Source of the DNA: an uncultured Gemmatimonadales bacterium
GTDB lineage: Bacteria > Gemmatimonadota > Gemmatimonadetes > Gemmatimonadales > GWC2-71-9
Assembly: GCA_963842945.1 (NCBI GenBank)
Contig: CAWJIM010000005.1
Span: 1-64,000, forward strand
Reading direction: 5' to 3'
Length of the DNA: 64,000 nucleotides
Both the position numbers and the translations under genes were made by a program. The notes beneath the pieces were generated by a model. That model saw only the letters and a program-made list of their open reading frames with translations, was not told the origin of the DNA and did not search any database. Position 1 is the first letter of the stretch, and each line of letters opens with the position of its first letter. This document shows positions 52,441 through 55,748 of this stretch, in pieces.

Positions 52441-53059
52441 ATGAGCCCCACGACTCTGCGCCGGCGCATCGCTGACTTCCGCTGGCAGCTCGACCGTCTG
52501 GGTGGATACGGGCGAAAGTTCGTGGTCGAGACCGATCTATCCCGGCTGGCGGAGCTGGCTCCGCCGTCCGAGGTGGATATTCGTCCGTTCAAGGAATCCG
52601 ACTGGTCGCTGCTCGGCGACATCATGCCCAAGTCGCTGACCGTCGAGCACGACGCCCCCGGTGCCGAAGGCCGAACCTGCCTGGTGGCGTGGAAACGACG
52701 GCGCGCGGTGGGCTACGCCTGGTTCTACCCCGAGGTGGACTGCCGGCACGAGCGCTGCGCGCTGCCGCTCCCTTCCGATGCGGTCTACATCCGGCAGCTG
52801 CCAGGTCGATCGGGCGGAGCGGCGGCAGGGTCTCGCCGCCGCTCTCCTGAGCGCGGGGCTCAAGCTCCGGCGCGACCAGGGTTATCACCGGAGCTGGATC
52901 GTGCTCGACCCCAAGAACACGGCGTCGGTGCGAACCATCGCGAGCGTGGCGCCCTGTCAGGTGCTGGGCACGCTAGCCTGGCTCCGGATCTTCGGCTGGA
53001 TACGCTGCCGGTACCGCGAGCTGCACGCGCCGTTTCCGATCGACACCCGCCTGTCGTGA
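52441..53059 (+). CDS. GNAT family N-acetyltransferase, frameshift near 52800
   Basis: AVGYAW, then V..AERRQGLA.ALL...N.AS in the next frame. Confidence 0.75.
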
Positions 53060-54531
53060 GCACGTCCGCCTCGTTCGAAGTCGCCCGGGCCACGGGTGCG
53101 CGCCAACCACAACGGCGGCTACTCCGGCGGCTCGCCACCTATGGGGTCTCGCGTGGCGCCACCGAGGCCATGCTGGCGGTTCGAGGAGTACTGCTCGCCG
53201 TGCTGCTCGGGCCGGCGGCGTTCGGCACCTGGGCGCTCCTGCGCCTGGTCATGCGCTACTCCGCACTCATCGGGCTCAGCGTCTATCGTGGGCTCGAGCT
53301 GGAGCTGTTGCGCAAAAAGGCGGGATCGCCTGGTGACGCCGGGACATTTGCGCCTGCCGGCGCTGGGCTTCGTGCTCCTGCTGTCGGGGGCCTCTCGCTC
53401 GTCGCGCTGACCATCTCGTTTCTGCGTGACGATCAGGCACACCGGGTGGTGCTGCGAGGCTTTGCGGCTGCGGGGCTGGCGGAGGCTCTCTTCGGCTATG
53501 CCCTGGTGTGCACCCGGGTGCGGGGGAGCCTCCGGCTCTACTCTCTGCTCGAGTCCGGGACGGCGGTGCTCCACGTAGTCTGCGCCGTCGCCCTGGCCTC
53601 GGTGTGGGGGCTGGGTGGCGCCTTCATCGGCCTCACTCTGGCCAACCTCCTGGGGATTGCCGCCGCGGCGCGGTGGCTCGAGCTGCGGCCCACCATCGAT
53701 CCGCAACGGGTGCGGCGGATGCTGGAGATTGGGTTGCCGGTGGTGCTCAGCATCGCGGCCGGAATTGCGCTGGGAACCGGAGACCGCTGGGTGGTGGCGA
53801 TCTGGGGTGGACCGACCATGCTGGGTTACTACGCGTTTGCCGGATCGGTTACAACCGTTGCAGCCGCGTTGGCGATGGTGGTGCGCACTGTCGTGTTCCC
53901 TCAGGTATATGGAGAAGCCAACTCCAATGGAGCGGCCGCGGCACTGCAGTCTCATCTGGAGCGGGCCTTATTGCCGTACGCCCGCCTGCTGCCACCGCTC
54001 CTTGGCGGATTGAGTCTGATTCTGGGACCGGTCGTGGTACAGGCGGTGCCCAGCTACCGCGAGGCTATTGCGCCGGGTCGAGTCTTTCTTCTAGCCGGGG
54101 TGGCCATGGGACTGGTCAATTTGGCCTCTATCGGTGCGGTCGCAGCCGGCCGGCAGAGGCGGCTGCCCCTCTATGCGGGATCGGCACTGGTGCTCACGTT
54201 TGCGCTTTCGATCATGGCGCTGGTCAGTGGCTATGGGCTCGGCTCGGTCGCTGCCGCCACCTTTGCCGGCCATCTGGTGTTCGCCGCACTGGTCCTCCGC
54301 CTCAATGTTCGGGAAGCCGGTATCCGGGAGCCGGGGCGGTTCGTCGCCACCATTCTCCTCCCGCTCGCGTGGTGCACCACCGCCGTGGGACTGGTGGGAC
54401 AGGTGATACCCGGTCTGGACGTTCGGTCGACCGCCATGGCCCTTTCCCTCTATCTCCTCCTGCTGGCGCCGCTGATGCCGAGCTGGACCAAGGAGATCCG
54501 GCGGATCCGCCATCGAGTCTCCGGCATTTGA
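53056..54531 (+). CDS. Oligosaccharide flippase (Wzx/MOP-like)
   Basis: Many TM helices; LLGPAAFG.W, DRWVV...G...LGYYAFA, VVFP. Possible local double frameshift near 53350-53390. Confidence 0.8.
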   Translation: MSTSASFEVARATGARQPQRRLLRRLATYGVSRGATEAMLAVRGVLLAVLLGPAAFGTWALLRLVMRYSALIGLSVYRGLELELLRKKAGSPGDAGTFAPAGAGLRAPAVGGLSLVALTISFLRDDQAHRVVLRGFAAAGLAEALFGYALVCTRVRGSLRLYSLLESGTAVLHVVCAVALASVWGLGGAFIGLTLANLLGIAAAARWLELRPTIDPQRVRRMLEIGLPVVLSIAAGIALGTGDRWVVAIWGGPTMLGYYAFAGSVTTVAAALAMVVRTVVFPQVYGEANSNGAAAALQSHLERALLPYARLLPPLLGGLSLILGPVVVQAVPSYREAIAPGRVFLLAGVAMGLVNLASIGAVAAGRQRRLPLYAGSALVLTFALSIMALVSGYGLGSVAAATFAGHLVFAALVLRLNVREAGIREPGRFVATILLPLAWCTTAVGLVGQVIPGLDVRSTAMALSLYLLLLAPLMPSWTKEIRRIRHRVSGI

Positions 54532-54557
54532 CATCCCGACAGATTAGGTCGTAATTT
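54528..54557 (+). promoter_or_regulatory. Sigma-70 promoter (TTGACA-N18-TAATTT) placing the predicted TSS on the leader-peptide ATG
   Basis: Perfect -35 at 54528; -10 at 54552-54557; ATG at 54564. Confidence 0.7.
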
Positions 54558-54563
54558 CTTGCC

Positions 54564-54659
54564 ATGAACTCCGTCGTCTCGCAGCTTCGCTCTGTCTCCG
54601 CCTCATGTTGCTGTACAAGCGCTCGAAAAACGCGAGCAGAGGGCGCCGCCCGAGATTGA
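54564..54659 (+). CDS. Cys-rich leader peptide MNSVVSQLRSVSASCCCTSARKTRAEGAARD
   Basis: 31 codons with TGT TGC TGT at 54606-54614; no SD; lies upstream of a sulfurtransferase and an attenuator hairpin. Confidence 0.8.
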   Translation: MNSVVSQLRSVSASCCCTSARKTRAEGAARD

Positions 54660-54686
54660 CTAGTGGCACAGGATCAGGACTTCTCG

Positions 54687-54728
54687 CCGGCCGCACCTCT
54701 TCCGAGGTCAGCGGCCGGTCTCATTTCT
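54687..54728 (+). terminator. Attenuator terminator
   Basis: CCGGCCGC-ACCTC-TTCC-GAGGT-CA-GCGGCCGG followed by TCTCATTTCT. Confidence 0.7.
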
Positions 54729-54766
54729 GATACTCAGTACGCGAGCTTCTTACCAAGGAGAATGCT

Positions 54767-55660
54767 ATGACCCCGGTGCAGACCGCTCACTCTGTTACTC
54801 CGATCGAGGAGCGAGGATATGCTCATCCGGAGGTGCTGGTGTCCACCGATTGGGTGGCTCAGCATCTGGAGGATCCCAAGGTCCGGCTGGTCGAATCGAA
54901 TGAGGATCTGCTGCTCTATGACACGGGGCACATTCCGGGGGCGGTAAAGATCGACTGGACCAACGACCTGAACGATCCGGTCATCCGCGACTACGTCGAT
55001 CGCGAGCGGCTGCAGAAGCTCCTGCGGTCGAAGGGCATCGACAACGACACCACCATCGTCTTCTATGGCGACAAGAACAACTGGTGGGCCACCTACGCGC
55101 TGTGGGTGCTGCAGCTGTTCGGGCTAAACAATGTGAAGGTGATGGACGGCGGCCGGCTCCGCTGGATCGACGAGGGCCGTTCCCTGTCCACTGATCGAAC
55201 CAAGTACCGTGAGGGCAACATCACGGTGGGAGAGCGAGACGACTCCCGCATCCGCGCCTTCCGCGAGGACGTTCTCGCTCACCTGAAGCAGAAAGGCCAG
55301 TTGGTCGATGTCAGGAGCCCCGAGGAGTTCCGGGGAGAGAAAACCCACATGCCGGAATACCCGCAGGAGGGCTGCCTGCGCGGCGGGCATATTCCCGGAG
55401 CGAAAAGCATCCCCTGGGCCAAGGCGATCGACCCCGAAACTCACACCTTCCGGCCCGCGAGCGAGCTGCGCCAGCTGTACCAGCAGGACAACAATCTGCG
55501 GCCGGAAGCGGAGACCATCGCCTACTGCCGGATCGGCGAGCGGTCGTCTCACACCTGGTTCGCACTCACCTACCTGCTCGGCTACGACAACGTGCGGAAC
55601 TACGACGGCTCGTGGACCGAGTGGGGGAACGCGGTGCGGCTTCCGGTGGAGAAGGGGTGA
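54767..55660 (+). CDS. Two-domain sulfurtransferase (rhodanese, SseA/CysA-type)
   Basis: LVSTDWV, GHIPGA x2, active site [25 protein letters not shown]. Confidence 0.95.
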
Positions 55661-55670
55661 CAACAAGAGC

Positions 55671-55748
55671 GTGAGCGGTAAGCGGTAAGCGGGAAGGCCC
55701 GCACCTCATCCCGAGCGCAGCGAGGGATCTACCTGTCGGGATGAGGTG
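55671..55748. repeat. Heptamer tandem (GT[GA]AGCG x3) plus REP-like hairpin between convergent genes
   Basis: 13-bp perfect IR CACCTCATCCCGA/TCGGGATGAGGTG (55702-55748) enclosing GCGCAGCGAGGGATCT. Confidence 0.6.

Follow-up and report, generated by a model that had tools for sequence, protein, structure and literature searches.

Known leader-peptide attenuators

Attenuation through a leader peptide is textbook knowledge for the trp, his and other amino-acid operons of Proteobacteria. Here we describe a leader of similar build in an uncultured soil bacterium of the order Gemmatimonadales (contig CAWJIM010000005.1), within a stretch of 64,000 nucleotides (nt) that was analysed as a whole and is called the window below; coordinates are those of the window, on the + strand unless stated otherwise. 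The leader stands before a gene for a two-domain rhodanese. With good confidence, we consider it a classical ribosome-mediated, cysteine-sensing transcription attenuator of that gene, probably acting on a leaderless transcript.

Like the classical attenuators, the locus combines a short leader open reading frame (ORF), in which codons for the sensed amino acid stand in a row, with an intrinsic terminator ahead of the structural gene. The four-segment logic of those systems, in which the tail of the ORF pairs upstream, pairs with the 5' arm of the terminator or is covered by the ribosome, is also reproduced in predicted folds. Unlike them, the leader would sense cysteine (Cys), its target is a single rhodanese gene rather than a biosynthetic operon, and its transcript is predicted to be leaderless; it also lies in Gemmatimonadota, and its putative antiterminator has no covariation support.

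The best-described cysteine systems are the leaderless polycysteine small ORFs (sORFs) of mycobacteria, Ms5788A and Rv0815A, reported as a 'Cys ribulon' (Canestrari et al., bioRxiv 10.1101/834739). According to the accessible text of that preprint, the Cys tract at the 3' end of the sORF pairs with the Shine-Dalgarno (SD) sequence of the next gene, and attenuation is translational; its authors contrast this with terminator-based attenuation and state that cysteine attenuation mediated by an upstream ORF (uORF) was previously undescribed. A 2026 paper on attenuation in M. tuberculosis, in the part available, also cites the cysteine loci as translational. The window leader shares with these sORFs an unannotated frame that has two or more Cys codons in succession and stands right at the 5' end of the transcript (predicted here), ribosome stalling as the sensor (proposed here) and a target in sulfur metabolism, which in the accessible account of the mycobacterial system includes a thiosulfate sulfurtransferase (cysA2 operon). 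Unlike them, it carries its Cys tract in the middle of the ORF and a terminator between ORF and SD. The pairing of Cys tract and SD that defines the mycobacterial mechanism is absent in all folds of the window leader, there is no sequence relationship, and the phylum is another one. The mycobacterial precedent invoked by a first-pass annotation of this DNA thus exists and does involve a sulfurtransferase operon, but, as far as the available text of the preprint goes, it acts by SD sequestration and without a terminator.

Two further sets of predictions come close. Upstream of cysS in Rhodobacterales, the accessible part of Brewer et al. (2021, PMC8632094) describes the motif uORFC-8-2, a predicted uORF with two Cys codons and an intrinsic terminator. 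It resembles the window leader in its tandem Cys codons (codons 14-15 there, 15-17 here), its stems, a U run read as a terminator and the read-through proposed to follow stalling. It differs in its cysS target, its alphaproteobacterial hosts and its two Cys codons, against a rhodanese target in Gemmatimonadota here, and it is a separate sequence family; a comparison of the window leader with Rfam, which is not confirmed to hold that motif, gave no family above threshold. In Actinobacteria, comparative genomics identified Cys-containing leader peptides before sulfur amino-acid genes (Seliverstov et al. 2005, PMC1262725). These too are short ORFs with runs of Cys codons, but the available text reports no conserved terminator hairpin and suggests Rho, unlike the conserved intrinsic terminator found here.

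In print, then, we found cysteine attenuation only as a translational mycobacterial system, as actinobacterial predictions lacking a terminator and as one predicted cysS uORF motif. A literature search that did not cover subscription journals returned no publication in which a Cys leader is tied to both a terminator and a rhodanese, and none on such elements in Gemmatimonadota, in agreement with the earlier annotation, which knew of no description from this phylum. What is new is therefore the phylum and the target of terminator-based cysteine attenuation; the kind of attenuator itself was to be expected.

A cysteine mini-ORF and a hairpin precede the rhodanese gene

The leader occupies the intergenic stretch 54532-54766, between a long + strand ORF and the rhodanese gene. 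Its promoter consists of a -35 box TTGACA (54528-54533), which overlaps the TGA stop codon (54529-54531) of the upstream ORF, and, after an 18-nt spacer, a -10 box TAATTT of the TANNNT type (54552-54557). A mini-ORF of 31 codons follows at 54564-54659, ending in TGA (54657-54659) and encoding MNSVVSQLRSVSASCCCTSARKTRAEGAARD. Its codons 15-17 are TGT TGC TGT (54606-54614), the last of them 42 nt from the stop codon, so that Cys makes up 9.7% of the mini-ORF as against 0.86% of codons genome-wide (crude gene calls). Between the mini-ORF and the SD of the rhodanese gene lies a GC-rich hairpin (54686-54719) that folds at -26 kcal/mol and is followed by the U-rich tail CTCATTTCTGA (54720-54730); a terminator scan listed a short stem within this hairpin as terminator-like. 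The SD, AAGGAG, is at 54755-54760. Promoter, ATG, 31-residue ORF, triple Cys and tailed hairpin all lie exactly where the first-pass annotation had placed them.

The rhodanese gene (54767-55660, ATG at 54767) encodes 297 residues of the thiosulfate/3-mercaptopyruvate sulfurtransferase type, with Pfam PF00581 matched twice (E 4e-37). Its closest solved structures are 1uar (E 4e-119), 3hzu (E 8e-106), deposited as thiosulfate sulfurtransferase SseA, and 3aax (E 2e-86), a putative thiosulfate sulfurtransferase. Because the next gene lies on the other strand, we take the rhodanese gene to be monocistronic.

Taken singly, the features of this one sequence are weak. A match to TTGACA-N18-TANNNT occurs once in the window, against 0.07 expected, and TGY-TGY-TGY occurs 12 times, against 3.2 expected, mostly off-frame; about 500 runs of three TGY triplets are present in the genome in any frame, again mostly off-frame in genes. 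The combination of features, together with its conservation in relatives, goes far beyond chance.

The arrangement recurs at orthologous rhodanese genes

The nearest public relatives are metagenome-assembled Gemmatimonadales of the phylum Gemmatimonadota. We compared 28 orthologous rhodanese loci from 41 genomes of the same order, excluding two paralogous loci (L029 and L030) from all counts. Eighteen of these 28 loci carry a small ORF containing two or more Cys codons and, 17-41 nt beyond its end, a hairpin that shares the core of the one in the window. The Cys codons upstream of orthologues, whose conservation the first-pass annotation had named as one check on its reading, come in runs of two to four in 16 of the 18 loci (three or four consecutive codons in 11, two in 5); the remaining two loci have spaced Cys codons (C-G-C...C and C-P-C-S-C). 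They vary synonymously, with 32 TGC and 29 TGT, where the TGT share genome-wide is 22% (crude gene calls). Outside the Cys run the leader peptides diverge, from 22 to about 40 residues in length and with poorly conserved sequence.

The other parts of the arrangement are kept as well. The lower stem of the hairpin, CGGCCGC/GCGGCCG, is conserved in all 18 loci, with six pairs invariant and a single G-U change in the seventh, and two pairs of the upper stem show compensatory changes. A T-rich tract follows the hairpin in relatives, and AAGGAG or GAGGAG precedes the rhodanese start in 17 of the 18 loci (L022 differs). Upstream, TTGACN is found at the same relative place, followed after 16-19 nt by TAAnTT or TAnnnT. 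Of the stems expected to covary if the earlier proposal held, the terminator thus does so in two upper-stem pairs, but the antiterminator shows no such support.

A search pipeline gave a similar picture. It called an sORF with at least two Cys within 7 codons, followed within 70 nt by a hairpin of -10 kcal/mol or lower with a T-rich tail, and it matched 25 of 108 upstream regions but 0 of 108 reverse complements. We then turned to a phylum-wide sample of 201 genomes, 98 of which hold the orthologue at E <= 1e-90 (including G184, flagged as unpublished, whose upstream region was not taken in). At relaxed thresholds, 20 of the 86 upstream regions added from this sample matched, as did 5 of the 86 controls, and we judged 17 of the 20 credible; these fall in several genera of two families. 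At L115, L117 and L135 the ORF and terminator are present although they stay below the pipeline thresholds.

Leaders of the same plan but unrelated sequence also stand before the same rhodanese elsewhere: in Chloroflexota (L053, L054, L055, beginning MMTMPLYPPAVCCPTCCCTQ, and L056) and in a metagenome-assembled genome (MAG) of Longimicrobium (L037). A Cellvibrionaceae MAG, a gammaproteobacterium (L092, ending MMIIMICYCCCKN), has a same-plan leader at this gene too. Further pipeline or Cys-run matches, at L041 and L052 (Chloroflexota), L034, L095, L113, L182 and L189, were judged doubtful. The presence of the element at 18 of 28 orthologous loci and in these further lineages supports the core of the first-pass proposal, that terminator attenuation controls the sulfurtransferase gene.

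Cys residues are the only conserved ones in the leader peptides, as would also be expected if the mini-ORF encoded a functional Cys-rich micropeptide, handling for example thiols, persulfides or metals together with the rhodanese, while the hairpin, rather than serving cysteine sensing, acted as a leaky terminator tuning the peptide-to-enzyme ratio. The partner gene does encode a sulfur-carrying enzyme, and a peptide tail of the form ...CCCT(T/N).PP...AAA.R is partly conserved within one clade. That tail, however, coincides with a G-rich RNA segment; the length, start position and non-Cys sequence of the leaders vary widely and the Cys count runs from 1 to 6; leaders at the same gene in other phyla are unrelated in sequence; and a peptide function would leave the fixed spacing between stop codon and terminator unexplained. 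We judge the micropeptide very unlikely.

Predicted folds of the leader

The attenuator reading divides the leader into four segments. Segment 1 (54573-54600) is predicted to pair with segment 2 when no ribosome is present, as in the minimum free energy (MFE) structure of the leader. Segment 2 (54638-54655) is the G-rich tail of the ORF and the proposed 5' strand of the antiterminator. Segment 3 (54686-54699) is the 5' arm of the terminator and, together with 54682-54685 and 54700, the proposed 3' strand of the antiterminator; segment 4 (54704-54719) is the 3' arm, identified from the hairpin fold and its conserved pairs.

Folding the leader under different ribosome positions gave three states. 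In the ribosome-free fold the ORF tail is bound by 54573-54600 and the terminator is present. When the Cys codons are masked by a ribosome and the RNA is cut off at 54703, the tail (54638-54655) instead base-pairs with 54682-54700. A ribosome masked at the stop codon covers the tail and leaves the terminator arm free. The distance from the last Cys codon to the stop codon, 42-45 nt in the clade of the window and 24-33 nt in most other loci, suffices to leave the ORF tail outside a stalled ribosome.

The mechanism that we propose would run as follows. The first transcribed base would be the A of ATG 54564 or lie no more than 1-2 nt away from it, and the mini-ORF would be translated without a leader. 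With ample Cys transfer RNA (Cys-tRNA), the ribosome would reach the stop codon at 54657 and cover the tail 54638-54655, the terminator 54686-54719 would be free to fold, and transcription would end ahead of the rhodanese gene. With Cys-tRNA scarce, the ribosome would stall at 54606-54614 and break the pairing between 54573-54600 and the tail; the freed tail would pair with 54682-54700, which contains the 5' arm of the terminator, the terminator would not form, and RNA polymerase would read into the rhodanese gene. In the absence of translation, segments 1 and 2 and segments 3 and 4 would each pair, again with termination.

The same folds bear on a mechanism of the mycobacterial type, in which a ribosome stalled on the Cys codons would unfold a structure masking the rhodanese SD, the hairpin being merely structural. 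The accessible text of the mycobacterial preprint presents this mechanism as demonstrated for leaderless polycysteine sORFs in M. smegmatis, and in the MFE structure of the window leader the SD can fall within a small local hairpin. But 42 nt separate the Cys tract from the stop codon and about 140 nt separate it from the SD, with which it pairs in no fold; the sequence of the small SD hairpin is not conserved in relatives; and what is conserved between ORF and SD is a strong hairpin with a T-rich tail. Translational attenuation is accordingly very unlikely in our estimate.

Promoter and start of the leader

A scan with a stricter sigma-70 consensus listed no promoter at the leader; the promoter was missed because TAATTT matches only 3 of the 6 bases of TATAAT. 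Conservation in relatives extends to positions within the spacer, where CCGAC follows the -35 box and (G/C)TCG precedes the -10 box. In the window these form an inverted repeat, CCGAC ... GTCG (54536-54551), which is a candidate operator and may serve some regulator. Its general form is CCGAC(T)-N5-9-(A)GTCG, seen also in L003-L007, L015, L026, L032, L033, L038 and L040 and further in L064, L113, L114, L123, L125, L129, L137 and L141; the spacer motif is kept even at loci that have neither mini-ORF nor terminator. The promoter with its spacer motif occurs only once in the genome of the window. At L064, a Gemmatimonadota MAG, short direct repeats (GGGATTG / AATCCC-like units, at about 750-900) lie just upstream of the conserved promoter.

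Could a protein or ligand acting on this spacer, or on the invariant CGGCCGC/GCGGCCG hairpin, account for the locus, with the Cys codons incidental? The persistence of the spacer motif without an attenuator speaks for such an agent, as does a hairpin core that is invariant in 18 of 18 loci, beyond the need of a generic terminator. Yet Cys runs have been retained, with synonymous codon changes, in leaders that are otherwise strongly diverged, and they reappear in the unrelated leaders of other phyla. The hairpin core is also not a repeated T-tailed element, a T tail following it in only 3 of its 30 occurrences in the genome. Rfam, searched over 54300-55000 at a permissive threshold, gave only a 15-bit, chance-level Ocean-VII match on the minus strand and none at the gathering score. 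We give this explanation little probability as a replacement for cysteine-sensing attenuation; a promoter operator in addition to the attenuator could well exist.

The mini-ORF transcript is probably leaderless in the window, a conclusion that we draw from the geometry of -10 box and ATG. Six bases separate the -10 hexamer from ATG 54564, whose A is thus the 7th base downstream, and no SD precedes the mini-ORF (no GGAG within 20 nt upstream). Since the frame is closed upstream by the TAA within the -10 box and contains no other in-frame start, translation, if any, would begin at 54564. By scripted measurement, the start codon lies 6-8 nt after the -10 box at L008, L037, L053, L055, L006, L111, L118, L162 and L172, and L002 (with a GTG start), L117 and L056 were judged by eye to have leaderless-type geometry too. 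The geometry behind the leaderless start predicted by the first-pass annotation recurs independently in several lineages, but most relatives are not leaderless by this measure.

Weighing the proposed attenuator

Several observations weigh against cysteine-sensing transcription attenuation as proposed here, and they concern the promoter, the terminator and above all the antiterminator. In most relatives the first in-frame start follows the -10 box at a distance of 12-33 nt or more, which makes leaderless initiation recurrent rather than universal. At L015, L026, L032, L033, L038 and L040, as well as at L113, L114, L123, L125, L129, L137 and L141, the promoter is present without mini-ORF or terminator, and some leaders (L064, L115) have only one Cys. 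The U-tract of the hairpin is imperfect, and the lower stem, lacking variation, offers no covariation evidence. The fold of the whole leader is not significant (z = -1.45).

The antiterminator raises the most doubt. The pairing of about 16 base pairs (5+3+3+5) between 54638-54655 and 54682-54700 that had been predicted is reproduced exactly as the MFE structure once the 3' arm of the terminator is omitted, but it is no better than dinucleotide shuffles (z = -0.46), 32% of which (upstream segment shuffled) fold as well. In only 3 of the 18 loci does the antiterminator beat 95% of such shuffles. ORF tails paired with the variable part of their own arm no better than with that of foreign arms (P = 0.37; with the full arm, P = 0.014). 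In all 18 loci and all 13 lineage groups, the segment of the leader that best complements the terminator's 5' arm falls within the ORF tail; this positional signal, however, largely survives reversal of the arm (10 of 13) or its shuffling (mean 10.5 of 13), and therefore mostly reflects the G-richness of the tail. The conserved feature is a G-rich ORF tail facing a C-rich terminator arm, rather than specific base pairs.

Ten of the 28 loci in the order sample lack the element, and two of these, L015 and L026, keep the same promoter directly before the gene. The same promoter with and without the element within one family indicates that the attenuator was gained or lost repeatedly. We grouped L082 with L026 among the attenuator-less promoter loci. 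L026, L033, L113 and L114 have a 5' untranslated region of about 90 nt with a GC hairpin that lacks a U-tract.

RNA-library contigs

Assembled contigs from RNA libraries show neither ends nor strand and may derive from contaminating DNA, and are for these reasons weak evidence of expression. One contig of 151 nt is identical to 54580-54730. A contig from another RNA library, with 3 differences, spans 54648-54844 and thus runs across the terminator into the gene. The stretch 54300-54554 is uncovered in all four RNA runs, which are uninformative on the start site.

Search for further Cys leaders in the genome

No second convincing Cys leader was found in the genome of the window. Small frames with runs of at least three Cys number 108, frequently off-frame, and nine of them are intergenic. 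Seven intergenic candidates besides the rhodanese leader were inspected: five have no convincing features, and the two promising CCC(C) matches, which precede Mrp-like genes, come from reading a small NifU-like gene out of frame. The cysK-like genes and cysD have no Cys leader on inspection. The pipeline run on this genome gave 18 upstream matches and 17 among reverse complements, with only the rhodanese leader convincing. That promoter-like site, off-frame TGY repeat and terminator stand together by chance, without regulatory meaning, might be argued from this near-equality and from the weakness of each window feature taken alone, but has practically no probability left, since dozens of genomes keep the three parts together at this gene, with none of the 108 controls matching, and the comparative data already contradict it.

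A sulfite or nitrite reductase (NIR_SIR) domain was not found either, although in a genome that is 87% complete this does not establish its absence. As the rhodanese gene is the only one with a Cys leader and no sulfite reductase was found, sulfur acquisition through the rhodanese may be the step on which cysteine supply depends in this organism.

Other sulfur-related and Cys-rich genes of this genome were noted in passing. PAPS_reduct was matched by one gene alone, a cysD that stands behind an APS-kinase-like gene, and one cysK-like gene follows a gene for an Rrf2-type regulator. Paralogous NifU-like genes (about 75 residues, with CxxC) lie just upstream of an Mrp/ApbC-type ATPase gene at two places, C19 (~616966-617200, minus strand) and C21 (~261104-261400, minus strand). 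A small ORF at C19:705057-705140 (+), MAGANCGCTKGCCDTGCCCGTSACECG, has 9 Cys in 27 residues and is metallothionein-type in appearance.

Implications

The occurrence of unrelated leaders before the same enzyme in other phyla suggests a general rule of sulfur economy. We put forward only tentatively, as a possibility that we rate below even, that rhodaneses of the SseA/CysA type are a recurrent target of independently arisen, Cys-codon ribosomal attenuators in several phyla (Gemmatimonadota, Chloroflexota and one gammaproteobacterium, and translationally, according to the literature, Actinomycetota), that this marks them as a first-line response to Cys-tRNA shortage, and that the spacer repeat is a second, independent layer of control, acting with or without the attenuator.

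Gemmatimonadota are an abundant, barely cultured soil phylum in which, to our knowledge, almost nothing is known of gene regulation. If the attenuator is real, it provides a concrete, testable regulatory element for this phylum, supports leaderless translation there and flags the rhodanese as a gene of cysteine starvation. It would also aid the annotation of unannotated small ORFs in metagenome-assembled genomes.

Flanking genes and repeats

The ORF upstream of the leader (52441-54531, + strand, 696 residues) has a weak Polysacc_synt match, pointing to flippase-type polysaccharide-biosynthesis families, over residues 367-526 only; its N-terminal third is without a family match, so that the ORF may be a fusion or over-extended.

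Downstream, a dispersed short repeat, GTGAGCGG(T/G)(A/G)A, is found at 55671-55695. It occurs at 115 places in the genome, often in small intergenic clusters (for example C2 ~118274-118335 and C22 ~839-881), with one pair of copies directly after the rhodanese stop codon, and may be REP-like. Between the convergent rhodanese and TPR genes lies a 13-base-pair inverted repeat, 55702-55714 / 55736-55748 (CACCTCATCCCGA / TCGGGATGAGGTG), which shares bases with the end of the minus-strand ORF and may be a bidirectional terminator.

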